Of a DNA stretch of 64,000 nt, positions 2,739 to 43,424 are shown piece after piece (the stretch's first letter is position 1; each line of letters starts with the position of its first letter). Position numbers and translations under genes: made by a program. The notes below the pieces were generated by a model. That model was not told the origin of the DNA, did not search any database, and saw only the letters and a list, made by a program, of their open reading frames with translations. This DNA is from Patescibacteria group bacterium UBA6201 (GTDB lineage: Bacteria; Patescibacteriota; Minisyncoccia; Phycocordibacterales; UBA918): positions 51,617-115,616 of the forward strand of contig DISV01000005.1 of assembly GCA_002422025.1 (NCBI GenBank). The letters are read 5' to 3'.

Positions 2739-3935
2739 TTATGTTGATGTGATGAATTCGTTAACCGTCTCTTTTACATACTCACGTTGTTCGCTGGTCA
2801 GTCCTTGGTGACAAGCGAAGACCATTCCACCACGCATAACTTGATCAGTATTTGGGTATGTAGTGGAAGCTAGGCGGTGAGGGATATTCTTGAAAGCTGG
2901 TTGCTTCAGTACATTTCCAGTGAAGATTGGGCGGGTTTGGATACCTTTATTCTCAAGGAAGGTCGCAAACTGCTTGCGATTGAAAGGTGCGTCGTCACGG
3001 ATAATAACAGGGAAGGCTAGCCAATTGGTCTCAGTGTTTTCAGTTTGTCGTGGCAGTATAAAATACTTTTCGTAGCGCTTGAAGAATTCCATAAGTTCAG
3101 CGTAATTTTCTTTTCGAGCTTTACCAAATTCTGGTAACTTCTCTAACTGAACGAGTGCAAAGGCAGCTTGAAGCTCTAATGGCAGGAAATTATAACCAAT
3201 CTCGCTGAAAATGAACTTATTATCGTATTCGATTCCGTCCAATTCTACATTAAAGCGGTTTTCAAGAAGCTCTGAGGCAGCATTTTCTCCAAATAATGAA
3301 GAACGACGTCCCCAACCGCGTAAGACCACTAAACGTTCTGCTAATGCAGCATCATGTACCATAATCATCCCGCCGCCGCCAGCACCGTTAATGATGTGTG
3401 AACCATAAAAGCTGGTGGTAGTGATGTGCGAGTAGCTACCAGTAGGTTTACCTTTATAAAGGCCACCCAAGGTGTCGCAGGAATCCTCAACTAACCATAA
3501 CTTGTGTTTATCGGCAATTTCTCTAAGAACCTCTAAGTTAGGAATGTTTCCAAGAAGAGACGGAATCATTAAAACTTTAGTCTTTGGTCCAATAGCCTTC
3601 TCGACAGCTTCAGGATTGACGATGTAAGTATCTGGGTCGATGTCGACGAAGATTGGTATTAGACCCTTCTGGATTATTGGAGCCACCACGGTACCAAAAG
3701 TCAAAAGAGGAGTAATAACCTCATCTCCTGTTTTTAAATCCATTATCTCAAAAGCCAGCAGGTTGGCAGAGGAGCCTGAATTAACCATTATGCCGTATTG
3801 CTTACCGAATAGTGCAGATACCTTTTTTTCAAAAAGGTCAGCTTTGGGTCCAAGGGCAGTATTACCTTTTAATACTTCAACCACTGCGTTTATTTCTTCT
3901 TCACCATGTACTGATTGAGCGTATGATACTTTCAT
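2739..3935 (-). CDS. ddhC: CDP-6-deoxy-D-xylo-4-hexulose 3-dehydrase (E1), DegT/DnrJ/EryC1 PLP/PMP-dependent family
   Basis: 398 aa. Shows the DegT-family fold (VNSGSSANLL, poly-Gly GAGGGGMIMV). It is divergently adjacent to rfbG and rfbF, the classical ddhABC arrangement. Confidence 0.7.
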   Translation of the reverse strand: MKVSYAQSVHGEEEINAVVEVLKGNTALGPKADLFEKKVSALFGKQYGIMVNSGSSANLLAFEIMDLKTGDEVITPLLTFGTVVAPIIQKGLIPIFVDIDPDTYIVNPEAVEKAIGPKTKVLMIPSLLGNIPNLEVLREIADKHKLWLVEDSCDTLGGLYKGKPTGSYSHITTTSFYGSHIINGAGGGGMIMVHDAALAERLVVLRGWGRRSSLFGENAASELLENRFNVELDGIEYDNKFIFSEIGYNFLPLELQAAFALVQLEKLPEFGKARKENYAELMEFFKRYEKYFILPRQTENTETNWLAFPVIIRDDAPFNRKQFATFLENKGIQTRPIFTGNVLKQPAFKNIPHRLASTTYPNTDQVMRGGMVFACHQGLTSEQREYVKETVNEFITST

Positions 3936-5966: not shown

Positions 5967-6020
5967 AAGCTTCATCTACACTTTATCTTTACTTGTTATG
6001 GTTGTATTATTTAATTTATA

Positions 6021-6782
6021 ATGGATTATAAAACGTTAGCAAAAGAAGCTCGGATTGCAGTTTTAGGCATGGTGCATAAAGCACAGCTATCGCACATAGC
6101 CTCTAATTTTAGTGTGATAGATATTGCAACGGTTCTCTATGAGAATGTAAATCTTGCAAAAGATAGGGTTGTTTGGTCTGCAGGCTGGAAAGCGGCTACT
6201 GTTTATTACTTTTTAAACAAGAAATCCATCCTATCCGATGAACAACTAGCACAGTTTCCCAACGCTCCATTTTATGGGTTAGCTGAAACGGAAGTTCCCG
6301 GCGTGGAGGTTAATGGCGGATCAATGGGTCACGGACTTTCAGTATCGGTAGGTATGGCTCTTGCTAAGAAACGTTCAAAAGAGGAGGGTATTGTCTACTG
6401 TATTCTCTCGGAAGGTGAACAGAATGAAGGGTCGGTATGGGAGGCTGTAATGATGGCGTACCACCATACTCTAGATAATCTAGTTGCAATTATTGACGTC
6501 AATAAGATTCAAGCTACTGGCTTCACAAAAGACATTCTTAATCTTGAGCCTTTGGAGGATAGGTGGCGCGGTTTTGGATGGGACGTTGTACGTATAGACG
6601 GACATTCTTATGTCGAAATTGAGTCAAGTTTGAAAAAAAGCTCGGGTAAACCGAAAGTTATAATTGCCGACACTATAAAAGGTAAAGGGGTAAGCTTTAT
6701 GGAAGGATTGCTTCTGTATCACTATAAGAGTCTCGATAATGAAACCTATAATAAGGCACTAAGTGAATTACAAAATGACTGA
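6021..6782 (+). CDS. Transketolase, N-terminal (ThDP-binding) subunit of a split transketolase
   Basis: 253 aa. ThDP-binding features (GHGLSVSVGMALAKK; HTLDNLVAIIDVNK). Its 3' end overlaps the next gene. Confidence 0.75.
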   Translation: MDYKTLAKEARIAVLGMVHKAQLSHIASNFSVIDIATVLYENVNLAKDRVVWSAGWKAATVYYFLNKKSILSDEQLAQFPNAPFYGLAETEVPGVEVNGGSMGHGLSVSVGMALAKKRSKEEGIVYCILSEGEQNEGSVWEAVMMAYHHTLDNLVAIIDVNKIQATGFTKDILNLEPLEDRWRGFGWDVVRIDGHSYVEIESSLKKSSGKPKVIIADTIKGKGVSFMEGLLLYHYKSLDNETYNKALSELQND

Positions 6783-18383: not shown

Positions 18384-18493
18384 AGTAGTTGTAGTAATCA
18401 GATTTGGGGTTAGTGTTTAATAGTGCTAATTATGGGACAATTATAAAAGATGCGAATCAGTCAAGACCGTATCAGCTAACTTATTGTAAATAT

Positions 18494-18823
18494 ATGAAAC
18501 TCATTCTCCACGTACTCATCGTCGCTTTGGCCCTACTGGTATCTGCTTACATTATTCCAGGTATCGAAGTAGCTAGTGTCTATATAGCCATAATTGCGGC
18601 TTTGATACTTGGTCTACTCAACTTAGTCATAAGACCGATTCTGTTTATTCTAACCCTACCGTTGACCATCATAACCTTCGGACTTTTTGCCTTCGTCTTA
18701 AATGCGCTCATCTTTTGGTTCGCCGCTTCTTTCATCGAGGGCTTTACGGTCACTGGTTTTATACCCGCACTTTTAGGTTCTATCGTGGTATCAATTGCTA
18801 GTGCACTAGCAAGCAAGGAATAG
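18494..18823 (+). CDS. Phage_holin_4_2 / DUF360 family 4-TM membrane protein
   Basis: Track ORF 18404..18823. The conserved family pattern starts at internal MKLILHV (18494): ...PGIEV...NLVIRPILFILTLPLTIITFGLFAFVLNALIFW...GF.V.GF. Confidence 0.75.
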   Translation: MKLILHVLIVALALLVSAYIIPGIEVASVYIAIIAALILGLLNLVIRPILFILTLPLTIITFGLFAFVLNALIFWFAASFIEGFTVTGFIPALLGSIVVSIASALASKE

Positions 18824-22466: not shown

Positions 22467-23228
22467 TTGATGTTATATAATTCGGTTATGGAGGAAATCT
22501 CGGTTAACGGAGAAAATTACGTAAAAGCTAGTATCTTAGCCAAGAATTTTGGCTACACTCCGGATTATATCGGACAACTTTGTCGTGCTGGGCAAGTGAA
22601 GTGCACACTTGTTGGACGTAGTTGGTATGTGAATGAAGAGTCGCTTCGAGAACATCGCAAAGGACGTTATCGAAGTAGTTCTGCTAAATCCAAAGAATAC
22701 TTACGTAAGGCAGTAGAAGATCAGTTATTAGTACCGGTTCAGATGCGAACTACTTCAACGGTAAGATATGAACCAGATGAGAAGGAACTTTTTCCGGCAC
22801 TGAATAAAACAGAAGAAACTCATCCTATTGCTTCTGAAGATGATAGTTTAGACTTAAAGGTGGCTATAAATAAGCCTCTATTGGTTGAATCGCTGTCAGA
22901 TAGGCCTGGTGTACCTGTAGCGAGGAAGACTTTAACTAGACATCCTGCACCCGTTTTGCGTACGATTCCTGCTTTACGCCCGATTATAAGCCCCGTACAA
23001 CCCAACTTAACTGCGAAGTCACAAAAAAGTGGCTTCATTCCGAGTCGGGTATCTACAACGGGTACCTTTGCAATATTTTTAGGAATTTTACTAGTTGAGT
23101 CGGTGTTGCTTTTTGGAGTTCTGGGATTAGAGAAGCGCCTCGTTTTGGCCGACAGTAATCAGGCAATGGTTTTGTATGGTTTTGATGCTGATAAGGCACT
23201 TGACTCGATAAAATTCTTCCAAAAATAG
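22467..23228 (+). CDS. Membrane-anchored protein with N-terminal excisionase-type HTH (HTH_17-like) and C-terminal TM helix; hypothetical
   Basis: 253 aa. aa 18-62 (YVKASILAKNFGYTPDYIGQLCRAGQVKCTLVGRSWYVNEESL) fit the HTH_17 pattern. The middle is Pro-rich and the only TM is near the C-terminus (TFAIFLGILLVESVLLFGVLGL). Confidence 0.5.
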   Translation: MMLYNSVMEEISVNGENYVKASILAKNFGYTPDYIGQLCRAGQVKCTLVGRSWYVNEESLREHRKGRYRSSSAKSKEYLRKAVEDQLLVPVQMRTTSTVRYEPDEKELFPALNKTEETHPIASEDDSLDLKVAINKPLLVESLSDRPGVPVARKTLTRHPAPVLRTIPALRPIISPVQPNLTAKSQKSGFIPSRVSTTGTFAIFLGILLVESVLLFGVLGLEKRLVLADSNQAMVLYGFDADKALDSIKFFQK

Positions 23229-23363: not shown

Positions 23364-26300
23364 GTGATGTCAGATAGTACAGAGCCTTCAAACGTAGACA
23401 CTTCAAAGTCGACAAAATTCCTTTCCGTCAAAGAGGCGGCCACTGTCTCTTCTTATACTACTGCTCACGTAACAAGGCTCGCTCAAAAGGGATTAATCAC
23501 AGCTGTGCGTGATGGTCGACAATGGCTGATTGATCCAATTTCTCTCCAAAAATTTGTCTGGGATACAGAAGAAAAAAAGAAAGTAAGAAAGGAACAATTA
23601 CGAAAGGAAAGAGTGGAGGAATTGCATTTATCTAGTACTGGACAAACTCTGGAGGATTCCGATGAGGAGTTTTCAATATTTGATGTTAGAACCGCCGTTG
23701 TTTCCGCCGTCTTCACCACTTGTGTAGCATTGTTGTTTTCTCTGGGGAGTGTTTATGATCAAAATGAACAAATCTTTGCTGGTAGTACGGTGGTGTCAGG
23801 AGTAGAGAGGTTATCCTATGATTTTAAGGATAGAGTGCTTCCTCGAACTCGCGACCTTTCAGCCACCACTCTCTTATCTGCTCCGATTGCAACATATTCA
23901 GGAAAAGTATTGGAATCGTTGTGGTGCGATTTGAAATTACTCTGGTACAAAAATGATAGCTGTGGTGCTCCAGCAATCGAGTACGCTATTCTGCCAATCA
24001 TAAATAACCGTGATGCTGACCCCGAGACTAATGTCACAGTTAACAATACTTACATCACTAATCCTGTAGAGAGAGAAGTCGTAGAGCGAGAAATTGTCCG
24101 TGAAGTTTTTGTCCAAGATGGTCAACTTTCTTTTGCTTCATACATAACTCGTACTGAGTACGACAATCAGGTTGATGCCATAATGCGCTCTATCGAAAAT
24201 ATCGACACGAGCGGAGGTGGTGGAGGTACTAGTAATGTTGCCTCTTTAGAGGATCTTTCTGATGTTGCAGCAATGACTGAAAGTACTGGTGATTTGTTAA
24301 TTTGGACCGGTTCGACCTGGAGTAATATTGCCACCTCTTCTTTGGGGATTTCCGGAGGTAGTGGCGCAGTCGATTCGGTCAATGGTCAGACTGGTGTAGT
24401 GGTACTCGATACTGGGGATGTTTCGGAAAATGGCAATCTATACTTCACCAACGCTCGCGCTCGCGAATCCCTTTCATCATCTGCCACCGGTCTTTCGTAC
24501 GCAACTTCAACCGGTGTTTTTAGCTTAACAGCCGGATACACCATTCCACTCACTGCCTCAACGACTGAATGGAGTAATACTACTAACCTCGTCACTGCCG
24601 GCAGCGCTTCTTGGGACGCTGCTGCAGCTAGTACCACCGCTCTTACTCCTAGCTACCTCCGTGGTCTCTTTTCTAACTCTGCCACCGGCCTCACCTATGA
24701 CTCTGGCACTGGCGCGACTTCACTCACATCTGGCTACACTATCCCACTTTTAGCTTCAACTACTGAGTGGGTTACTGCGTATGGGTGGGGGGATCACTCA
24801 CTGCAAAACTACATCCAGCAAAACGACAACGTAGTATTTGGTAATGCCACTACCACTAGCCTGGTGGTTAGTAACAACATCACAACTTCCTTAAACGATG
24901 GTTGTGTGGAAGTTGCTGGTGGCATACTTACCTCTACCGGTTCTAACTGTGGGATTGGTAGTGGGGGAATCACTAGCCTAAATGGCCTCACTACATCTTC
25001 TCAGTCGTTTGCCACTTCCACCTCAGGAGGTCTTGATCTCAGTATCACTTCTAGTAGTGGTGTACACACTTTCACTGCAGGTCTTTCAGCCGGCTACACC
25101 ATCCCACTTTCAGCTTCCACCACCGAGTGGGCCAACACTCGCAATATCGTCAACGCCTCTTCAACCCTCTGGGACACTGCATACAGCTGGGGAGATCACA
25201 GTACCGCCGGCTACCTAACAACCATCGCTTCTTCCACCATTCGCAACATGTTCTCTAACACTGCCACTGGTCTCACTTATGACTCTGGTACTGGCATCAC
25301 TTCATTGACAGCCGGCTATACTATCCCACTTACTGCCTCAACAACTGAGTGGTCAACCACATACGGATGGGGAGATCACAGTATCGCTGGCTACTTAACC
25401 GAAGTCGCCACTACCACCGTACGTAGCATGTTCTCAACTGGTACTGGTCTTTCATATTCAACTACCACTGGAGAGTTTATCAACACCGGTGTCCTTTCGC
25501 TCGGTGGACTAACCGGTGCTGTGGCTACCTCATCTCTCCATGTCTCCACCTCTACATATGCCTTTACGTCCGGTACCTCATCAATCGCTCTTTCACTCGA
25601 TGGATTTAATTCAACAGACTATCTAACGCTATCCGCTTGGTATGCCACCACCACCGACGCTCTTGATGAAGGTCTAAACAATCTATATTTCACCAACGCT
25701 CGCGCTCGTGAATCACTTTCATCATCTGCCACCGGTCTTTCATACGCAACTTCAACCGGTGCTTTTAGCTTAACGGCCGGCTATACCATTCCACTCACTG
25801 CCTCTACGACTGAATGGAGTAACACTGCTAACCTCGTCACTGCTGGCAGTGCCTCTTGGGACGCTGCTGCAGCTAGTACCACTGCTCTCACTCCAGCATA
25901 TCTGCGTGGTCTCTTTTCAAACTCTGCAACCGGTCTTACTTATGACTCTGGTACTGGCGCGACTTCACTTACAGCTGGCTACACTATCCCACTCACAGCT
26001 TCAACGACTGAGTGGGCTACTGCGTATGGGTGGGGGGATCACAGTGCGGTGGGATATCTCGTCTCTGGTGATATCGACACTTCCTCCGAACTACTCACAA
26101 TTGTTTCAGACGAAACCGGCACTGGCTCATTAGTGTTCAACGCTTCGCCAACTTTCACTGGCAACACCACTTTGGCAAATGCCTCTACCACCAACCTCAC
26201 CGTTTCAGGTAACAGCTATCTCGGTACGGTTGCCTCCGGTACCTGGAACGGTACCGACATCGACATCTCTGACTACACCAATCTCTCAGTCACTGCCACT

Positions 26301-29300
26301 GGCCTCTCCCTGTCCGGTGATGCTGTAGCACTCACTGCCGGCTATATTATCCCACTTTCAGCTTCAACAACTGAGTGGTCAACCGCGTATGGGTGGGGAG
26401 ATCACAGTATCGCTGGTTACTTAACCAACATTACTGGTGAATCACTCGAAGACCTGACTGATGTTGCCACAATGACCAAGTCTACTGGTGATCTTCTTTC
26501 ATGGAATGGTTCAAGTTGGACGAATGTGGCTACGTCATCTCTTGGCTTCAATGACCACGACAGTGTCACTCTTGCTGGTGAAAATTATCTATCACTAGCA
26601 ACTCAACAAATCACGGCCAACGCCATCAACCCAGATAACCTAGCATCCGCCGACTTCGGTGACTTCACCTGCAACGGTACTACTTGTTCGTTTGATACTG
26701 ACTCTGTCAGTGACAACGAGATTGATTACACAACAGTCACTCTCAATGACCTAACTTTCGATGTAGGCAACGTTTCGAAGACCGAGTTTGGTTACCTAGA
26801 TGGAGTCACTTCTGCTATACAAACGCAACTTGATTCAAAACTTTCAACTACCACTGCTGCCTCAACTTACTTAACAATCAACAATAATTTATCTGACCTT
26901 GCCTCCACCACTGTGGCCCGCACTAATCTCGGACTTGGTACCGTTGCTCTACTTAACAGTATTGATATCTCTGATAATACCAATCTCTCTGTATCAGCGA
27001 CCGGCCTCTCCCTGTCCGGTGATGCTGTGGCACTCACTGCCGGCTACACCATCCCACTTTCAGCCTCAACCACTGAGTGGTCAACTGCATACGGATGGGG
27101 AGACCACAGTATCGCTGGCTATCTAACCAATATTACTGGTGAATCCTTCTACGACTTAGTTGACACTCAAAGTTCATACACTGCCAACCGTGTTTTATAT
27201 CAAGGCGGAGGAGGTGTGACTGACTCAGCCAACCTCACCTTCGACGGTTCACTCTTCAGTGTGATTGGTACCGCTTCATCTACAAATCTTTTTACTACCA
27301 ATGCCACTACCACCAATATCACTGCTTCAGGTCACGCTACTCTTGCTACAGCATCATCTACTAACTTCACTGTCTCAGGTAACTCATATATAGGTACGGT
27401 TCTTGGTGGTGCATGGCAGGGAAGCGCAATCGGTGTGCAGTATGGCGGTACCGGAGCAAGTACATTCACTGCCGGAGAAATTCTTGTAGGCAACGGTACT
27501 GGAGCCATCACTTCAACCTCAACCGCCAACCTCAAGGCCACTCTTGGACTTAACAATGTAGAAAACACTGCACTCTCTACTTGGGCTGGTTCATCTAACA
27601 TTACTACCCTTGGTACTATCGTTTCTGGTGTTTGGAATGGAACTACTATAGATGTAGCTCATGGCGGCACCGGAGCTACTACTCTCACCGGTCTCCTTTT
27701 AGGTAATGGCACTGGTGCATTCACTGCTACCACCACATTATCTTCTTCTTATATAGAAGATGCTTATGTTCTCAATACTGGCGACTCTATCTCTGGTAAC
27801 CTAACTTTCTCTGGATTAGCCGCTAATATTGTTCTAGGTTCTAACTGGCTTTCAGGCGATGGAGGAGACGAGGGGCTGTTTGTTGATAGTGTCGGTAAAG
27901 TCGGTATCGGGACGGCTTCTCCCACCGCAGCATTATCAATTACTAATGATGGAACATCTGATCTTGATGTCTTGCTTGATAACGGCACAGTTCAAGGAGT
28001 ATTTGAGTTACAATCAAACAGTGTTGCAAGGTTGGGTACCATAACGAATCATTCATTCGAATTCGTAACCAATAACTCTACTCGTTTTAAGGTAACTAAT
28101 GCCGGGAATATTGGTATAGGCTCCACCTCTCCATCATCTAAACTCACTGTTCAAGGTGACACCTGGATTGGTGGAAACATTACTGCCACTGGCACTTTAA
28201 ATATCACTGATCACTCTACTCTAACTACTGCCTCCACCACCAACCTCACTGTCTCAGGTAACAGCTATCTCGGTACAGTTGCCTCCGGTACCTGGAATGG
28301 TACCGACATCGACATTAGCGACTACACCAACCTCTCTGTATCAGCGACCGGCCTTGAACTTTCGGGTGATGCTATTGCACTCACAGCTGGCTACACTATC
28401 CCACTCACTGCTTCAACTACTGCCTGGAACACAGCCTATAGTTGGGGTGACCACAGCATAGCTGGATATCTAACCAATATTACTGGTGAATCACTTGAAG
28501 ACCTGACCGACGTAGCAGCAATGACTAAGTCTACCGGTGACCTTCTTTCATGGAATGGTTCAAGTTGGACGAATGTAGCGACTTCAAGCTTAGGGATTAC
28601 TGGCACTTCCGACGGCGTCGCTTCTTCAAGTGTGGCGTTTTCGGTCCACAAGAATGGGACGAACCAGACAGTGACAGCAAATACATTTACCTTGCTCACT
28701 TGGTCCACCGAAGTCTTCGACACCAACAACAACTTCGACCTCACCACTGAACGCTTCACGCCAACGGTGGCGGGGAAGTATATTGCGACCGTTGCGTCGT
28801 TTTGTAATGACAGTACAACAAATTGCCAAGTAGCAATATATAAAAATGGTGTCTTGTACTCAAAAAATGTGAATGTTGATCCGAATAATACAGGATCTAT
28901 GGTAACTACTATTGTAGACATGAACGGTACCACTGATTATCTAGAAGCCTATGGATATGATGGTGGAGGAACTACTATCTCCGGCGCTGCAGAGGTCACC
29001 TACTTCTCCGGCGCCCTCATTGCTCCAGCTAACGGCCTCGCCGGCGGTTGGTCTAACGACGGCACGCAGTCATACCTCGCCGACTACACCGACCTCGTAG
29101 CTATCGGTACTTCTACTGCCGCCGCAAAGCTCGATGTGTGGGGAAGTGCTGGTTCAACTGACATACTCGGAATTTCTTCAAGTACTGGTTCACGACTCCT
29201 CACTGTGACAAGTAACGGTAATGTGGGGATTGGAACCACCACTCCTTCGTCGAAACTCTCCGTCTACGGTGACGTTCTGCTCGAAGGCTCAAGCCGTTAT

Positions 29301-32300
29301 CTAAACTTCGGTAGTACTGCAGGTACATCAGGCTACGGTATTCGCGACAACGCCGGAACCATAGAGTTTAAAAACTCTGGTGGCTCTTGGACCGGTATTG
29401 GCACGGGCACTGGCAGTACTGGTTCTAGTAGTGTGGCGTTTTCGGTACATAAGAATAGCACTGCGCAGACGGTGACTTCAGCTACTGTCACGCTTCTTAC
29501 TTGGTCTACCGAACTCTTCGACACCAACAACAACTTCGACCTCACCACTGAACGCTTCACGCCAACGGTGGCAGGGAAATATACAGTTACACTTTCAGCT
29601 TTTTGTGATAATGGTACAACAGGTTGTGCGGTCTACATCTATAAAAATAACGTACTTGTAAACCAAGGCTATACTGGGTCAAACGTTGCTACCGGTGTTG
29701 CAGCTGTTACGGCCATTATAGATATGAACGGTACGACGGATTATCTAGAAGCTTATGTATTTAATAATAATGGTACTACCATTAATGGTGGTAAACATGT
29801 CACCTACTTCTCCGGCGCCCTCATTGCTCCAGCTAACGGCCTCGCCGGCGGTTGGTCTAACGACGGCACGCAGTCATACCTCGCTGACTACACCGACCTC
29901 GTTGCTATCGGTACCACTACCGCAGCCGCTAAGCTTGATGTCTGGGGAAGTGCTGGTTCAACTGACATCCTTGGTATTTCATCCTCAACAGGTTCACGTT
30001 TGTTGACACTCACTAGTGGAGGCAACCTCGGTCTCGGCACTACTACTCCGTCATCTAAACTCTCCATCCAAGGAACTGGTAATCTCCTCTCACTCTTCGA
30101 CACTGCCGGCAACTCTATCTTCAATATTGCTTCTGCCACTACATCTACCTCTACTCTAGCTACCAACCTCGCAATCACCGGCAACCTCTCACTTTCTGGT
30201 TCACTCTACGATAGTACTAGCTCTGCTGGTTCTTCAGGTATGGTGTTACAAAGTACTGGTAGTGGAACTCAATGGGTAGCCACTTCATCACTTGGTATTA
30301 CTGGTGGTACTGATGGTGTCGCTTCTTCAAGTGTGGCGTTTAGTGTGCATAAGAATGGAACAAATCAGACTGTGACAAGCAATGTAGAAACTTTGGTGAC
30401 TTGGTCCACAGAAGATTTTGACACAAATAACAACTTCGACCTCTCAACAGAACGTTTTACTCCTACTATTGCAGGTAAATATATAGTCACAGTCGCTGTA
30501 CGGTGCGATTCGGCGACCACCTTTTGTCAGGCACGTCTGAGAAAGAACGGAAGTGGTATATCAACTCGATATGAATATACAGCCGGAGGTGGCACTCCAC
30601 CTACTACAGTTACAGCTACTGTGGATATGAATGGTACGACGGATTACTTGGATGTTATGGCGACAAATAGTGGGGGAACCACAATAAACGGTGGTGCGGA
30701 ATACACATACTTCTCCGGCGCCCTCATCGCTCCAGCTAACGGCCTCGCCGGCGGTTGGTCAAATGACGGTACTCAGTCATACCTCGCCGACTATACCGAC
30801 CTCGTTGCCATCGGTACCACTACCGCTACTGCTAAACTCGACATCTGGGGAAGTGCTGGTTCAACTGACATTCTTGGTATCTCATCCAGTACTGGTTCAC
30901 GACTTCTCACAGTGACGAGTAACGGTAATTTGGGAATTGGAACCTCTTCACCAACATACAAACTTGATGTAGCTGGAGGATATATAAACGTAGATGGTAA
31001 CAGTGGTGGATATAAAATAAGTGGTAACACCATTCTTCAAGCTTCGAGTACTAACTTCAGTACCTTGGTTGGTAATGGAGCTGGTACAGTACTGCAAGCC
31101 ACCGGTCTATACAACACCGCTGTTGGTTATCAGTCATTAAATGTAGCGACTTCTTCTACTTACAACACCGCTGTCGGTTATCAATCGCTCTTCTCTGATA
31201 CTTCTGGTGGTAGCAACACAGCTACTGGTTACAAGGCTTTGTACTCAAACACCACTGGTGGTTTTAACACCGCACTGGGACGAGAATCTCTCTATTCCAA
31301 CACCACTGGTGTCGCCAACACTGCTTATGGTTACAAATCTCTCTATTCCAACACCACTGGTAGTTACAACGTGGCTAGTGCGTATCAAGCTCTACAGTCC
31401 AACACCACTGGTAGTTACAACATGGCCTTGGGACGTCAGGCTCTCTACTCCAACACCTCTGGACAAGGTAATACCGCGGTAGGGTTTAGAACTGGTTACG
31501 GTGACGGGTCTACATTAAATCAACAATCAGTAGTGGATGAGTACATAACATTGATTGGTTATCAGGCTTCTCGTGATGCTTCAGTGGCTTCGACCACCTC
31601 TCTCACTAACAGCGTTGCGATTGGTTACAACGCTAGATTCTTAGCTAGCAACCAAGTAGTGCTCGGTAATGATTCGGTTACTTCCACTTTGTTGAAAGGT
31701 AATGTCAGTATCGGTACCACCACCAACGCTGTAGCTGGTGGCACAGCAGCCTTCTTAAACATTGATCGTTCAAGTGCGGGGGCGTTCGCCGTGGGTACAT
31801 ATATAAATCTCACTACAAGTGCTTCTCATTTTGGTTTTGCTAACCCTAACGGTTTGGTTGGTACTATTAACACTTCTGCTTCCGCCACCACCTACAACAC
31901 CACTTCCGACCGTCGTACCAAGGAAAATATTACCGAAACCGTACTCGGACTCGATGCCTTAATGCAGCTACCAATACGTGACTTCTCATTCATTAAAGAT
32001 ACTACCCACGCTACAACCTCCGGCTTCATCGCGCAGGAGTTATATGAAATATTCCCTTGGGCAGTCTCAACCAACGGTGACAATGGTATTGACCCACTTA
32101 CCGGCACCAGTACTCCTTGGTCAGTGGACTATGGTCGAGTGACTCCACTCATTGCTCGGGCAGTACAGGAATTGAATTTGAAACTAGAAGATTTGGCCAC
32201 CACTAGCTTGTATGCCGATTTGGAAGCTGATTCATTTACTAAGAGTTTCTTCGATAAACTCATCGCTTGGTTTGCTGACGCTACCAATGGTATTGAGAAC

Positions 32301-32726
32301 TTCTTTGCGAATCGGGTAAGCACTAAGGAGTTATGTGTTGGGGACGGCAGTGGGGCGGAGACCTGTATCACTAAGAGTCAACTAGATTCGCTATTACAAA
32401 GTGCGGCGGTAGGTAGTTCAAACAGTGGGGGAGAAGGAGGTGGTTCTTCCACTCCAGAACCCCTTCCTCCAGTAGACACCACTACTCCTGAACCAACCAC
32501 TAACGATACTGCTGCAACTACGACTACAGACGTAACTACCGACACTACCACAACTACAGACGGAACCACAGACACACCATCACCCGACAATGGAACGATA
32601 ACCGACACTGAACCAGTTCCAGAACCTACGCCTGAACCAGCTCCCGATCCAGAACCAGAGTCAGCTCCGGAACCGGCGCCAGAACCTACTCCAGAACCTA
32701 CTCCAACCCCAGCTCCAACGGAATAA
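23364..32726 (+). CDS. Giant (3120 aa) membrane-anchored repetitive surface fibre: N-terminal cytoplasmic HTH_17-like domain, one TM helix, repetitive ectodomain, tail-fibre-like module with C-terminal S74 intramolecular chaperone domain, Pro/Thr/Glu-rich tail
   Basis: It is a single uninterrupted 9363-nt ORF. The frame-1 GTG is at 23364 and the ATG at 23367. The HTH is LSVKEAATVSSYTTAHVTRLAQKGLITAVRDGRQWLIDPISL. The TM is AVVSAVFTTCVALLFSLGSVY (~aa 109-129). Repeats and the C-terminal module are listed separately. Confidence 0.85.
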   Translation: MMSDSTEPSNVDTSKSTKFLSVKEAATVSSYTTAHVTRLAQKGLITAVRDGRQWLIDPISLQKFVWDTEEKKKVRKEQLRKERVEELHLSSTGQTLEDSDEEFSIFDVRTAVVSAVFTTCVALLFSLGSVYDQNEQIFAGSTVVSGVERLSYDFKDRVLPRTRDLSATTLLSAPIATYSGKVLESLWCDLKLLWYKNDSCGAPAIEYAILPIINNRDADPETNVTVNNTYITNPVEREVVEREIVREVFVQDGQLSFASYITRTEYDNQVDAIMRSIENIDTSGGGGGTSNVASLEDLSDVAAMTESTGDLLIWTGSTWSNIATSSLGISGGSGAVDSVNGQTGVVVLDTGDVSENGNLYFTNARARESLSSSATGLSYATSTGVFSLTAGYTIPLTASTTEWSNTTNLVTAGSASWDAAAASTTALTPSYLRGLFSNSATGLTYDSGTGATSLTSGYTIPLLASTTEWVTAYGWGDHSLQNYIQQNDNVVFGNATTTSLVVSNNITTSLNDGCVEVAGGILTSTGSNCGIGSGGITSLNGLTTSSQSFATSTSGGLDLSITSSSGVHTFTAGLSAGYTIPLSASTTEWANTRNIVNASSTLWDTAYSWGDHSTAGYLTTIASSTIRNMFSNTATGLTYDSGTGITSLTAGYTIPLTASTTEWSTTYGWGDHSIAGYLTEVATTTVRSMFSTGTGLSYSTTTGEFINTGVLSLGGLTGAVATSSLHVSTSTYAFTSGTSSIALSLDGFNSTDYLTLSAWYATTTDALDEGLNNLYFTNARARESLSSSATGLSYATSTGAFSLTAGYTIPLTASTTEWSNTANLVTAGSASWDAAAASTTALTPAYLRGLFSNSATGLTYDSGTGATSLTAGYTIPLTASTTEWATAYGWGDHSAVGYLVSGDIDTSSELLTIVSDETGTGSLVFNASPTFTGNTTLANASTTNLTVSGNSYLGTVASGTWNGTDIDISDYTNLSVTATGLSLSGDAVALTAGYIIPLSASTTEWSTAYGWGDHSIAGYLTNITGESLEDLTDVATMTKSTGDLLSWNGSSWTNVATSSLGFNDHDSVTLAGENYLSLATQQITANAINPDNLASADFGDFTCNGTTCSFDTDSVSDNEIDYTTVTLNDLTFDVGNVSKTEFGYLDGVTSAIQTQLDSKLSTTTAASTYLTINNNLSDLASTTVARTNLGLGTVALLNSIDISDNTNLSVSATGLSLSGDAVALTAGYTIPLSASTTEWSTAYGWGDHSIAGYLTNITGESFYDLVDTQSSYTANRVLYQGGGGVTDSANLTFDGSLFSVIGTASSTNLFTTNATTTNITASGHATLATASSTNFTVSGNSYIGTVLGGAWQGSAIGVQYGGTGASTFTAGEILVGNGTGAITSTSTANLKATLGLNNVENTALSTWAGSSNITTLGTIVSGVWNGTTIDVAHGGTGATTLTGLLLGNGTGAFTATTTLSSSYIEDAYVLNTGDSISGNLTFSGLAANIVLGSNWLSGDGGDEGLFVDSVGKVGIGTASPTAALSITNDGTSDLDVLLDNGTVQGVFELQSNSVARLGTITNHSFEFVTNNSTRFKVTNAGNIGIGSTSPSSKLTVQGDTWIGGNITATGTLNITDHSTLTTASTTNLTVSGNSYLGTVASGTWNGTDIDISDYTNLSVSATGLELSGDAIALTAGYTIPLTASTTAWNTAYSWGDHSIAGYLTNITGESLEDLTDVAAMTKSTGDLLSWNGSSWTNVATSSLGITGTSDGVASSSVAFSVHKNGTNQTVTANTFTLLTWSTEVFDTNNNFDLTTERFTPTVAGKYIATVASFCNDSTTNCQVAIYKNGVLYSKNVNVDPNNTGSMVTTIVDMNGTTDYLEAYGYDGGGTTISGAAEVTYFSGALIAPANGLAGGWSNDGTQSYLADYTDLVAIGTSTAAAKLDVWGSAGSTDILGISSSTGSRLLTVTSNGNVGIGTTTPSSKLSVYGDVLLEGSSRYLNFGSTAGTSGYGIRDNAGTIEFKNSGGSWTGIGTGTGSTGSSSVAFSVHKNSTAQTVTSATVTLLTWSTELFDTNNNFDLTTERFTPTVAGKYTVTLSAFCDNGTTGCAVYIYKNNVLVNQGYTGSNVATGVAAVTAIIDMNGTTDYLEAYVFNNNGTTINGGKHVTYFSGALIAPANGLAGGWSNDGTQSYLADYTDLVAIGTTTAAAKLDVWGSAGSTDILGISSSTGSRLLTLTSGGNLGLGTTTPSSKLSIQGTGNLLSLFDTAGNSIFNIASATTSTSTLATNLAITGNLSLSGSLYDSTSSAGSSGMVLQSTGSGTQWVATSSLGITGGTDGVASSSVAFSVHKNGTNQTVTSNVETLVTWSTEDFDTNNNFDLSTERFTPTIAGKYIVTVAVRCDSATTFCQARLRKNGSGISTRYEYTAGGGTPPTTVTATVDMNGTTDYLDVMATNSGGTTINGGAEYTYFSGALIAPANGLAGGWSNDGTQSYLADYTDLVAIGTTTATAKLDIWGSAGSTDILGISSSTGSRLLTVTSNGNLGIGTSSPTYKLDVAGGYINVDGNSGGYKISGNTILQASSTNFSTLVGNGAGTVLQATGLYNTAVGYQSLNVATSSTYNTAVGYQSLFSDTSGGSNTATGYKALYSNTTGGFNTALGRESLYSNTTGVANTAYGYKSLYSNTTGSYNVASAYQALQSNTTGSYNMALGRQALYSNTSGQGNTAVGFRTGYGDGSTLNQQSVVDEYITLIGYQASRDASVASTTSLTNSVAIGYNARFLASNQVVLGNDSVTSTLLKGNVSIGTTTNAVAGGTAAFLNIDRSSAGAFAVGTYINLTTSASHFGFANPNGLVGTINTSASATTYNTTSDRRTKENITETVLGLDALMQLPIRDFSFIKDTTHATTSGFIAQELYEIFPWAVSTNGDNGIDPLTGTSTPWSVDYGRVTPLIARAVQELNLKLEDLATTSLYADLEADSFTKSFFDKLIAWFADATNGIENFFANRVSTKELCVGDGSGAETCITKSQLDSLLQSAAVGSSNSGGEGGGSSTPEPLPPVDTTTPEPTTNDTAATTTTDVTTDTTTTTDGTTDTPSPDNGTITDTEPVPEPTPEPAPDPEPESAPEPAPEPTPEPTPTPAPTE
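24436..28600 (+). repeat. Intragenic array of ~10 copies of a 40-65-aa motif (..SATGLTYDSGTGATSLTAGYTIPLTASTTEW.TAYGWGDHS..)
   Basis: The DNA motif ggctacac(c/t)atcccact(c/t) recurs near 24533, 24732, 25093, 25313, 25775, 25975, 26340, 27043 and 28385. It includes a ~370-nt segment duplicated at ~90% nt identity (24436-24800 vs 25680-26045). There are also three copies of a ~100-aa module GTWNGTDIDISDYTNLSV.ATGL.LSGDA.ALTAGY.IPL.ASTT.W.TAY.WGDHSIAGYLTNITGES (26230, 26960, 28280). Confidence 0.85.
28585..30965 (+). repeat. Three tandem ~810-900-nt (~270-300 aa) intragenic repeat units
   Basis: Each unit starts SLGITG.SDGVASSSVAFSVHKNGTNQTVT (28585, ~29395, 30291). Each contains ..FDTNNNFDLTTERFTPTVAGKY..DMNGTTDYLEAY..YFSGALIAPANGLAGGWSNDGTQSYLADYTDLVAIGT and ends ..SNGN(V/L)GIGTTTPSSKLSV. 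Several 100-nt blocks are almost identical at the nt level (e.g. 29010-29110, 29815-29915, 30720-30820). Confidence 0.85.
31110..31480 (+). repeat. Tandem 48-51-nt repeats encoding ~8 copies of a 16-17-aa N-T-A-x-G-Y-x-(S/A)-L-Y-S-N-T-T-G motif (tail-fibre / YadA-head-like beta-solenoid repeat)
   Basis: YNTAVGYQSLNVATSST / YNTAVGYQSLFSDTSGGS / NTATGYKALYSNTTGGF / NTALGRESLYSNTTGVA / NTAYGYKSLYSNTTGSY / NVASAYQALQSNTTGSY / NMALGRQALYSNTSGQG. Confidence 0.8.
31900..32200 (+). other. Peptidase S74 / C-terminal intramolecular chaperone (auto-cleaving) domain of phage tail-fibre / tail-spike type
   Basis: TSDRRTKENITETVLGLDALMQLPIRDFSFIKD....SGFIAQELYEIFPWAVS....VDYGRVTPLIARAVQELNLKLEDL. This matches the SD(R/K)xxKxNI...LxxLxxLxV..Y.yk......hiGfIAQEv..v.P consensus of endosialidase / T5 L-shaped-fibre chaperone domains. 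Confidence 0.7.
32430..32723 (+). repeat. Low-complexity Pro/Thr/Glu/Ala-rich C-terminal tail (TPEP/PEPT repeats)
   Basis: ...TPEPLPPVDTTTPEPTTNDTAATTTTDVTTDTTTTTDGTTDT...EPVPEPTPEPAPDPEPESAPEPAPEPTPEPTPTPAPTE*. Confidence 0.8.
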
Positions 32727-42437: not shown

Positions 42438-43424
42438 ATGCGATTACGTAAGAGCGATGACCCGATCACTTACTATCTAGTCCCCTTTCTAGAATATTGT
42501 GAAATTGAAAAAGGCCTTTCTGATAATACTCAAAGAAATTACGAACAATACCTTAAGTTGTTCATACATTGGCTTAATGTCGCCAATTTGAATGATTTAA
42601 AGCCTCATGAGATAACCCCGGAGCATATTTGGGATTATCGACTGTTTTTATCACGCAAATACAAAAGTCGCCGTAATTTGCCCCTGTCCAAGAAATCTCA
42701 GAACTACTACTTAATAGCCCTACGCTCACTACTCGATTTTTTTGCCGAAAAGGACCTAGAGTCACTACCGTCAGCCAAAATTAAGCTTGCCAAACAAAAA
42801 GATGACCATACGGTCGCGTTCTTGGATGTTAATGACATAGAAAAGATGGTTAAGGTACCTAATGTCAGTAAGCCAGGTGGTTTACGCGACCGAGCCATTA
42901 TGGAATTATTTTTTTCGTCTGGTTTGCGTATCGCAGAGCTTTGCAAACTCGATCTTGATCAGATGTCGATGCTAAAAGATAATGATGAAACTCGTACGTA
43001 TGAGTTGTCAGTCGTTGGAAAAGGTCGGCATGTTCGCACAATATTTATCTCACCCCGAGCAGCTGGCTGGCTCCGTGAATACATAAAAACAAGACGTGAC
43101 GTCTGGAAGCCTCTTTTTATCAATTATCGAACCCGTCCAAATCCTAATGGTATTGAGACTGAAAGACGTCTCACTCCCCGTTCGATTCAAAGTATGATAG
43201 CTAAGTCGGCGATTATGGCCGGGTTATCAAAAAAAGTCACTCCACACACCCTTCGCCACACCTTTGCTACCGATCTTTTATCCCGTGGTGCTGACTTGCG
43301 TAGCGTCCAGGAGCTTTTAGGTCACCAAAACGTCTCCACGACTCAGATATATACTCACGTCACCAACAAACAGTTACGGGACATCCACGAGCGTTTCCAT
43401 GGTGGTAATGAGAATAAAAAATAA
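42438..43424 (+). CDS. xerC: Tyrosine site-specific recombinase, XerC/XerD family
   Basis: 328 aa. N-terminal SAM-like core-binding domain and C-terminal catalytic domain with R..HxxR..Y (LRHTFATDLLSRGADLRSVQELLGHQNVSTTQIYTHV). Confidence 0.8.
   Translation: MRLRKSDDPITYYLVPFLEYCEIEKGLSDNTQRNYEQYLKLFIHWLNVANLNDLKPHEITPEHIWDYRLFLSRKYKSRRNLPLSKKSQNYYLIALRSLLDFFAEKDLESLPSAKIKLAKQKDDHTVAFLDVNDIEKMVKVPNVSKPGGLRDRAIMELFFSSGLRIAELCKLDLDQMSMLKDNDETRTYELSVVGKGRHVRTIFISPRAAGWLREYIKTRRDVWKPLFINYRTRPNPNGIETERRLTPRSIQSMIAKSAIMAGLSKKVTPHTLRHTFATDLLSRGADLRSVQELLGHQNVSTTQIYTHVTNKQLRDIHERFHGGNENKK

Follow-up and report, generated by a model that had tools for sequence, protein, structure and literature searches.

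A giant gene of a Patescibacteria group bacterium encodes a candidate surface fibre with a phage-type S74 intramolecular chaperone domain

One gene in a 64,000-nucleotide stretch of contig DISV01000005.1 (positions 51,617 to 115,616 of the forward strand, assembly GCA_002422025.1) from Patescibacteria group bacterium UBA6201 encodes a giant protein whose C-terminal domain is a bona fide S74 intramolecular chaperone domain (ICD), as shown by the profile match, the Ser-Lys dyad and the predicted fold. We infer that the gene encodes a membrane-anchored surface fibre of an ultra-small bacterium of the candidate phyla radiation (CPR)/Patescibacteria type. The ICD probably drives the trimeric folding of this cell-anchored fibre and its self-cleavage, acting from a C-terminal cassette made of the ICD, a conserved module with a cysteine (Cys) hairpin and a low-complexity tail. 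Hereafter the window means the whole stretch of 64,000 nucleotides (nt), and amino acid (aa) numbers of the giant are counted from the GTG at nt 23364, giving 3,120 aa with the ATG as second codon. The ATG-started product of 3,119 aa deposited in NCBI/ENA forms a singleton cluster at 90% identity.

The C-terminal domain belongs to the S74 family

An earlier reading of the window, made from the sequence only and called here the sequence-only reading, had assigned the C-terminus of the giant to the S74 family of phage tail spikes and fibres and had postulated a Ser/Lys dyad. The assignment was borne out by a hidden Markov model (HMM) search. The Pfam family Peptidase_S74 (PF13884) matched aa 2848-2901 of the full protein with an E-value of 2.9e-10 and a score of 40.7 bits, the gathering score being 22, and the C-terminal 374 aa searched alone gave 44.2 bits (E 2.4e-11). 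The motif TSDRRTKENI has its first residue at aa 2847 (nt 31902), and nt 31905-31907 encode Ser2848. The peptide strings quoted in the sequence-only reading are all present in the giant open reading frame (ORF), including the NTAxGYxSLYSNTTG repeats at aa 2584-2700.

When the C-terminal 374 aa were compared directly with PDB sequences by phmmer, only low-complexity noise was returned, and a profile was needed. An alignment (A1) was made from the window segment and 29 homologous C-termini, which were picked by an S..K regular expression after phmmer with aa 2830-3027 had found few, and the profile derived from A1 was searched against PDB sequences. It matched a putative tail fibre (8jov, E 2e-18), the distal subunit of a long tail fibre (6f45, E 6e-18), the intramolecular chaperone auto-processing (ICA) domain of MyRF (7dc3, E 2e-14) and the L-shaped tail fibre of T5, pb1 (8hqz, E 3e-10), as well as the C-terminal fragment of the phi29 gp12 neck appendage (3gud). 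The columns of S2848 and K2853, both invariant in A1, align to position 587 (Ala in the crystallised S587A mutant) and K592 of MyRF in 7dc3, and to SDERHK, the first residues of the crystallised 3gud chain. MyRF S587/K592 is equivalent to endoNF S911/K916, the catalytic Ser-Lys dyad; the cut falls just N-terminal of the Ser, and S74 cleavage is activated only in the trimer (PMC8326128). The postulated dyad was therefore recovered at aligned positions, S2848 and K2853 occupying the Ser and Lys columns of solved ICDs.

The predicted fold pointed in the same direction. In an AlphaFold2 (AF2) monomer model of aa 2718-3030, pLDDT was 82-94 over most of the ICD, and two long helices were formed by aa 2923-2955 and 2959-2986. 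Foldseek matched this model to 7dc3 with an E-value of 8.6e-4, a probability of 1.00 and a TM value (normalised to target) of 0.59-0.66. Among the viral models of BFVD, 263 matched it at E<=1e-3, the top ones being phage proteins named 'Peptidase S74' or 'intramolecular chaperone auto-processing'.

We considered whether the S74 match could be a chance or compositional artefact of a low-complexity Thr/Ser-rich protein. The composition of the giant is indeed strongly biased (T 509, S 387 and G 341 of 3,120 residues, the protein being A-rich as well), and phmmer of the C-terminus against PDB gave nothing except noise. However, the Pfam score is almost double the gathering score, the E-values of the profile against PDB go down to 2e-18, the fold matches to 7dc3 and to BFVD are independent, and the matched segment is not of low complexity. 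We give such an artefact virtually no chance.

A conserved Cys-hairpin module separates the ICD from the tail

According to the sequence-only reading, the S74 domain was followed by a Pro/Thr/Glu-rich tail. The tail is present, but it does not follow directly: some 65-70 conserved residues intervene. This segment (aa ~2956-3020), which is not of low complexity, reads FADATNGIENFFANRVSTKELCVGDGSGAETCITKSQLDSLL and conforms to the motif FADATNGIxxFFANRVxTKELCVGDxSGxETCITKxQLDxLL. In the AF2 model (pLDDT 77-87) it opens with a long helix and closes with another helix, and the beta-hairpin between them has C2991 on one strand and C3001 on the other. Both cysteines are invariant in an alignment of 40 sequences.

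A word-index search with the module led to four relatives, and the alignment of these was used for a HMMER scan of 1.84 billion representatives. At E<=1e-3 the scan placed the module in 1,302 representative clusters, 462 of which also passed E<=1e-10. It had no Pfam or NCBIfam match, a fold search in PDB gave nothing significant (best E 0.53), and it was not found in 50,697 GenBank phage records or in IMG/VR. Protein architectures were surveyed on the best 150 of the 1,302 representatives, 152 proteins being analysed. Large and giant proteins (450-6,358 aa) carry the module near the C-terminus, with S74 directly upstream in 49 of 67. In small proteins of 150-340 aa, a signal peptide and a helix precede the module, and a tail rich in A, P, E and T follows it; a genome scan with a narrow pattern located such proteins in Xanthobacteraceae, Hyphomicrobiales and other Alphaproteobacteria, in several copies per genome.

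At loci L012, L013, L016, L018, L020, L023, L025 and L028 the small proteins have 190-340 aa and the match lies at about 6001-6130 in each; the metagenome-assembled genome (MAG) CAVRHR01 holds at least four copies. Judging by ORF sizes, the small alphaproteobacterial genes look monocistronic, with no obvious conserved operon or neighbours. In a 1,745-aa relative (locus L003, 1207-6444) the module is preceded by a weak match to the Peptidase_G2 'IMC autoproteolytic cleavage domain' (E 9e-4, below cut-off), and no S74 was detected by Pfam. Intramolecular chaperones of more than one kind may precede the module.

Beyond the module, the final 93 aa of the giant (3028-3120) comprise 29 T, 25 P, 11 E and 9 D. 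P, T, E, A, S, G and D together account for 93% of the tail and hydrophobic residues for 2%. Across the family the median tail is 95 aa long; the same seven residues make up 74% of the tails but 56% of the remaining sequence of these proteins, and hydrophobic residues 9% as against 23%. Inside the 'tail' of two giant relatives, P0210 and P0184, a Bact_surface_Ig-like domain (PF16403) lies after S74 and module, at aa 3656-3727 and aa 1936-2013, respectively. Most likely, the module would serve outside the cell as an additional element for oligomerisation or capping, held together by a disulfide, and the tail as a solubilising spacer; this is the weakest step of our interpretation.

Conservation of the dyad and predicted self-cleavage

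The Ser and the Lys of the dyad were invariant in 54 of 54 sequences, namely the window and 53 relatives chosen by the downstream module only, a selection meant to offset the bias of A1 towards S..K, and Arg was found at +3 of the Ser in 42 of them. At the level of sequence, this invariance argues that catalysis by S2848/K2853 is under selection. If catalysis is maintained, ICD, module and tail would come off together as a single 273-residue fragment.

By analogy with the S74 family, and given the conserved dyad, we propose the following course of events, which we hold to be probable. The HTH-like (helix-turn-helix) domain at the N-terminus of the giant would lie in the cytoplasm, a single transmembrane (TM) helix would serve as anchor, and about 2,990 residues would be outside the cell. 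After export of the C-terminus, three chains would associate through the ICD and through the long helices that run into the module. This association would set the register and let the upstream trimeric fibre fold. The Ser2848/Lys2853 dyad would then cut the T2847-S2848 bond. The 273-residue fragment with ICD, module and disordered tail would be shed, or else kept as a non-covalent cap, and aa ~2700-2847 would be exposed as the mature distal tip.

Several observations weigh against this proposal. The HMM that aligned the 54 dyads was built from S..K-picked sequences and may have biased the alignment, the residues counted being real. The 130 aa preceding Ser2848 were modelled with pLDDT of only 41-70, and no triple-beta-helix family matched the region upstream of S74. 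The small secreted alphaproteobacterial proteins carry the module without S74, which indicates that the role of the module need not depend on an ICD. Finally, a Bact_surface_Ig-like domain was present in 28 of the 152 module proteins and stood downstream of the module in 26, and a folded domain of this kind in the post-ICD part of relatives would be unexpected in a piece destined only for disposal.

These Ig-like domains, placed after S74 and module in P0210, in P0184 and in 26 of the best 150 representatives (152 scanned), suggest an alternative in which S74 trimerises the chains with no cleavage or no release, and module and tail, together with the Ig-like domain of relatives, stay as the true distal end, for instance as a cap or adhesive tip. 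The conservation of a module with invariant cysteines likewise suggests a function beyond discard, and functional elements after an ICD have a precedent in the type IX secretion system (T9SS) sorting domains that follow S74 in Bacteroidota. Against permanent attachment stand the invariance of Ser and Lys in all 54 cassettes and the cleavage carried out by the same dyad in endoNF, T5 pb1, phi29 gp12 and MyRF (PMC8326128; the 3gud chain starts at the Ser). The two explanations also overlap in part, as cleavage is compatible with non-covalent retention of the fragment. We consider a fibre that keeps its C-terminal part uncleaved or unreleased to be unlikely, though the main competitor, and retain the proposal of chaperone-driven folding followed by self-cleavage.

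The putative N-terminal anchor and the mosaic relatives

Near its N-terminus the giant has a domain resembling HTH_17, with 19.7-23.9 bits in Pfam (below the gathering score of 27) and 20.2 bits for TIGR01764 'excise'. An HTH_17-like domain was detected in all five giants tested, that of the window and P0164, P0210, P0184 and P0147, and its score in P0210 (33.4 bits) is above the Pfam cut-off. The giant contains a single strongly hydrophobic stretch: on the Kyte-Doolittle scale, values above 1.6 were reached only by 19-aa windows whose first residue is one of aa 105-113. These features suggest a membrane protein with its N-terminus inside and its C-terminus outside, whose HTH-like domain would be cytoplasmic. 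Of 59 complete large proteins of the module family, 11 have an N-terminal match to a local HTH HMM; all 11 have at least 1,419 aa and a first hydrophobic stretch at aa 94-204. A word-index search with the N-terminal 144 aa of the giant gave one match only.

BLASTP comparisons revealed a mosaic relationship among these proteins. P0272 (2,845 aa) and P0212 (2,165 aa) resemble the giant over aa 2831-3011 and 2831-3061 only, with 46-52% identity. P0164 (4,338 aa) and P0210 (3,796 aa) share the C-terminal cassette and, in addition, aa 13-167 (31-33% identity; E 5e-18 for P0210 and 1.5e-14 for P0164), and their bodies show at most a few short repeat matches. Similarity confined to the ends suggests that these act as conserved handles for anchoring and assembly around an exchangeable middle. 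We also observed that the HTH-TM N-terminus recurs in CPR giants (P0164, P0210, P0184 and others) which otherwise share only the C-terminal cassette.

Directly 5' of the giant gene lies an ORF of 253 aa without Pfam or NCBIfam match. Its HTH-like segment contains ..YTPDYIGQLCRAGQVKCTLVGRSWYV.., and its similarity to the N-terminus of the giant is weak (pairwise E 0.001). Its product could act as a partner of the giant or be an anchor paralogous to it.

The repetitive middle and the stem

Between anchor and cassette the protein is largely repetitive. The repeat region holds nine copies of the motif GY(T/I)IPL..AST and seven copies of WGDHS. Further on, Pfam C1q was matched with an E-value of 7.7e-9 and 36.3 bits (gathering score 23.7), the best stretch being aa 2325-2455, and phrog_15750 matched the giant in three stretches. 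Three C1q-like modules, starting at aa 1754, 2021 and 2321, each open with SSSVAFSVHKN. At the DNA level the copies (repeat families D1 and D4) have 66-83% identity, as would be left by internal duplications of rather recent date. C1q/TNF-type domains are trimeric in the well-studied members of the family, and their presence fits a trimeric fibre without proving one.

The 17-aa NTAxGYxSLYSNTTG repeats correspond to a tandem array with a period of 51 nt at 31204-31462, as detected by TRF. They drive very high scores to cellular entries named 'tail fiber domain-containing' and 'trimeric autotransporter adhesin'. In the sequence-only reading they were likened to a beta-solenoid, a putative assignment: they have no Pfam match, and their region was not modelled with confidence. 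In the stem that follows, aa ~2809-2844 were modelled by AF2 as beta strands, with pLDDT of 55-63. The coordinates of all these features are collected in Table 1.

Table 1. Features of the giant gene and of the ORF preceding it, in nucleotide positions of the window
Feature	Position	Strand	Basis or remark
253-aa ORF directly 5' of the giant	22467..23228	+	HTH-like N-terminus, hydrophobic stretch near C-terminus
Giant gene	23367..32726	+	ATG at 23367; mechanical ORF from GTG 23364, 3,120 codons
N-terminal HTH_17/excisionase-like domain (aa 19-66), putatively cytoplasmic	23418..23561	+	Pfam HTH_17, TIGR01764, relatives
Predicted single transmembrane anchor (aa ~105-131), N-in/C-out	23676..23756	+	Kyte-Doolittle
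T/S/G/A-rich repeat region (aa ~290-1740)	24231..28583	+	Repeat families D2, D3, D5-D7; motif counts
Three tandem modules of ~270-300 aa with C1q-like jelly-roll (aa 1754-2540)	28623..30983	+	Pfam C1q, phrog_15750
17-aa NTAxGYxSLYSNTTG repeats, YadA-head-like (aa 2584-2700)	31113..31463	+	Motif positions, TRF
Stem/tip segment before the cleavage site (aa 2701-2847)	31464..31904	+	AF2; tip role presumed
Catalytic motif S2848-D-R-R-T-K2853; predicted cut T2847/S2848	31905..31922	+	Profile alignments
S74 intramolecular chaperone domain (aa 2848-~2955), including long C-terminal helix aa 2923-2955	31905..32228	+	Pfam, profile, AF2, Foldseek
Conserved unannotated Cys-hairpin module (aa ~2956-3020)	32229..32423	+	Family alignment, AF2
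G/S linker, then T/P/E/D-rich low-complexity tail (aa 3021-3120)	32424..32723	+	Composition; stop codon 32724-32726

Genomic context and distribution

The giant gene is surrounded by housekeeping genes, in the order secA, murB, obg, gatB, the 253-aa ORF, the giant, scpB, a DD-carboxypeptidase gene, mraY, ftsW, murG and gltX. No phage structural, packaging or lysis cluster was found within about 10 kb on either side, and PHROGs gave only matches of unknown function on the giant, with no structural phage family. These results agree with the sequence-only reading, which had taken the gene for a cellular one rather than part of a prophage.

A tail-fibre gene of a phage or prophage, or a piece recently transferred from one, might nevertheless be suspected, because tblastn of the ICD matched tail-fibre genes in 150 phage records, and because the window contains an isolated gene for a Phage_holin_4_2-family membrane protein (18404-18823), standing among housekeeping genes, and an isolated tyrosine recombinase gene (42438-43424) with the XerC/D-type domain pair. 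The identity to the phage ICDs is only 35-40%, however, so that the homology is real but not recent. The recombinase is of the XerC/D type and is encoded about 10 kb past the end of the giant, and neither it nor the holin-family gene is evidence of a prophage. The housekeeping neighbours, the lack of a phage cluster within about 10 kb, the PHROGs matches restricted to unknown functions, the predicted N-terminal membrane anchor, and a downstream module not found in 50,697 phage records or IMG/VR all speak for a cellular gene. A prophage origin is thus most improbable and, like a chance S74 match, effectively excluded.

Over the giant gene (24000-32000) the GC content is 0.46-0.49 with negative GC skew, the flanks having 0.41-0.45 and positive skew. 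We attribute the raised GC and negative skew to the T/S/G/A-rich codon usage of the repeats and not to foreign origin. An Rfam scan of all 64 kb returned no family at gathering score, tRNA included.

The sequence-only reading had further proposed that a phage fibre-folding module was co-opted by a cellular gene. This is supported, but the arrangement is widespread: with aa 2540-3027 as query, significant matches were obtained to at least 7,942 database proteins of this C-terminal architecture. Such proteins are named 'tail fiber domain-containing protein' by NCBI (Bacteroidia, Paceibacterota, WOR-3, Limisphaerales), and several homologues are called 'trimeric autotransporter adhesin' by JGI. 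In 99 of the best 120 matches the S(D/S)xRxK motif lies 90-290 aa from the C-terminus, and many Bacteroidota homologues have a T9SS sorting domain after the ICD. Cellular proteins with an S74 domain are therefore nothing unusual and would not surprise a specialist. Named relatives of the cassette belong to Candidatus Paceibacterota and Patescibacteria, and others come from Nomurabacteria, Vogelbacteria, Doudnabacteria, Minisyncoccia and 'Saccharibacteria' MAGs; these relatives point to a CPR/Patescibacteria member as the bearer of the giant gene.

Discussion

The giant shares with the ICDs of phage K1F endosialidase and T5 pb1 the Pfam family, the Ser-x4-Lys dyad, the predicted fold with its long C-terminal helix, and the position at the C-terminal end of a long, probably fibrous protein. 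Unlike phage fibres, it is a cellular protein of about 3,100 aa with a putative N-terminal membrane anchor, and not a component of a virion. Its ICD also differs from those of phages in not being the C-terminus, since a Cys-hairpin module and a tail of about 100 aa, not found in phage collections, come after it.

Closer in architecture are the bacterial 'tail fiber domain-containing' proteins of Bacteroidota, Verrucomicrobiota, WOR-3 and Paceibacterota, in which repeats of the NTAxGYxAL type precede an S(D/S)xRxK ICD as they do in the giant. Most of these proteins have 450-850 aa and end 90-165 aa past the Ser, whereas the giant is 4-6 times longer and has the HTH-TM N-terminus. Many S74 proteins of Bacteroidota carry Por_Secre_tail (PF18962) after the ICD; the giant lacks PF18962 and has the Cys-hairpin module instead. 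Like the YadA family of trimeric autotransporters, it combines short head-type repeats with a probable trimeric fibre and a presumed surface location, but a beta-barrel anchor at the C-terminus is lacking, Pfam gives no YadA match at E<=0.1, and the giant would be anchored by its N-terminus. To our knowledge, CPR cells have no outer membrane.

The best solved structural match to the ICD of the giant is the ICA of MYRF (7dc3), with the same dyad (S587/K592, PMC8326128). In each of the two proteins a domain of DNA-binding type occurs together with a TM helix and an S74 domain. Unlike in MYRF, the TM helix of the giant lies between the HTH and the ICD, which are some 2,700 residues apart. A release of the HTH in the manner of MYRF was considered and rejected on the domain order, HTH (aa 19-66), TM (aa 105-131), about 2,700 aa and then S74 (aa 2848): with the TM helix between HTH and ICD, cleavage cannot release the HTH.

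A literature search found no paper linking S74 or the chaperone of endosialidase to Patescibacteria or the candidate phyla radiation, and the literature found on giant genes focused on Omnitrophota. The Cys-hairpin module with its tail, and the design of a giant fibre anchored through HTH and TM, appear to be undescribed. One may go further and imagine a CPR-specific system for interchangeable giant trimeric fibres, defined by the HTH-TM end and by the end made of S74, Cys-hairpin and P/T/E tail. The module, found in cellular proteins only, would then be a new extracellular oligomerisation or capping domain, stapled by a disulfide. Together with the ICD it would form a trimeric 'transient cap' that hides the adhesive tip until the fibre matures and is then shed, and the HTH would link the fibre either to DNA or to some partner in the cytoplasm, for example the neighbouring HTH-TM protein. 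We put this extended model forward as speculation and doubt that it holds in full.

CPR/Patescibacteria are mostly episymbionts, and their attachment to host cells is poorly understood. The giant is a concrete candidate for an attachment organelle, whose distal tip would, if our proposal is true, be created by phage-type self-cleavage. Its analysis also brings out a domain family of about 1,300 clusters that had no annotation; the domain is found alongside S74 in giant cellular proteins and by itself in small secreted Xanthobacteraceae proteins. The design of conserved ends around a swappable middle is reminiscent of the mosaicism of phage tail fibres.

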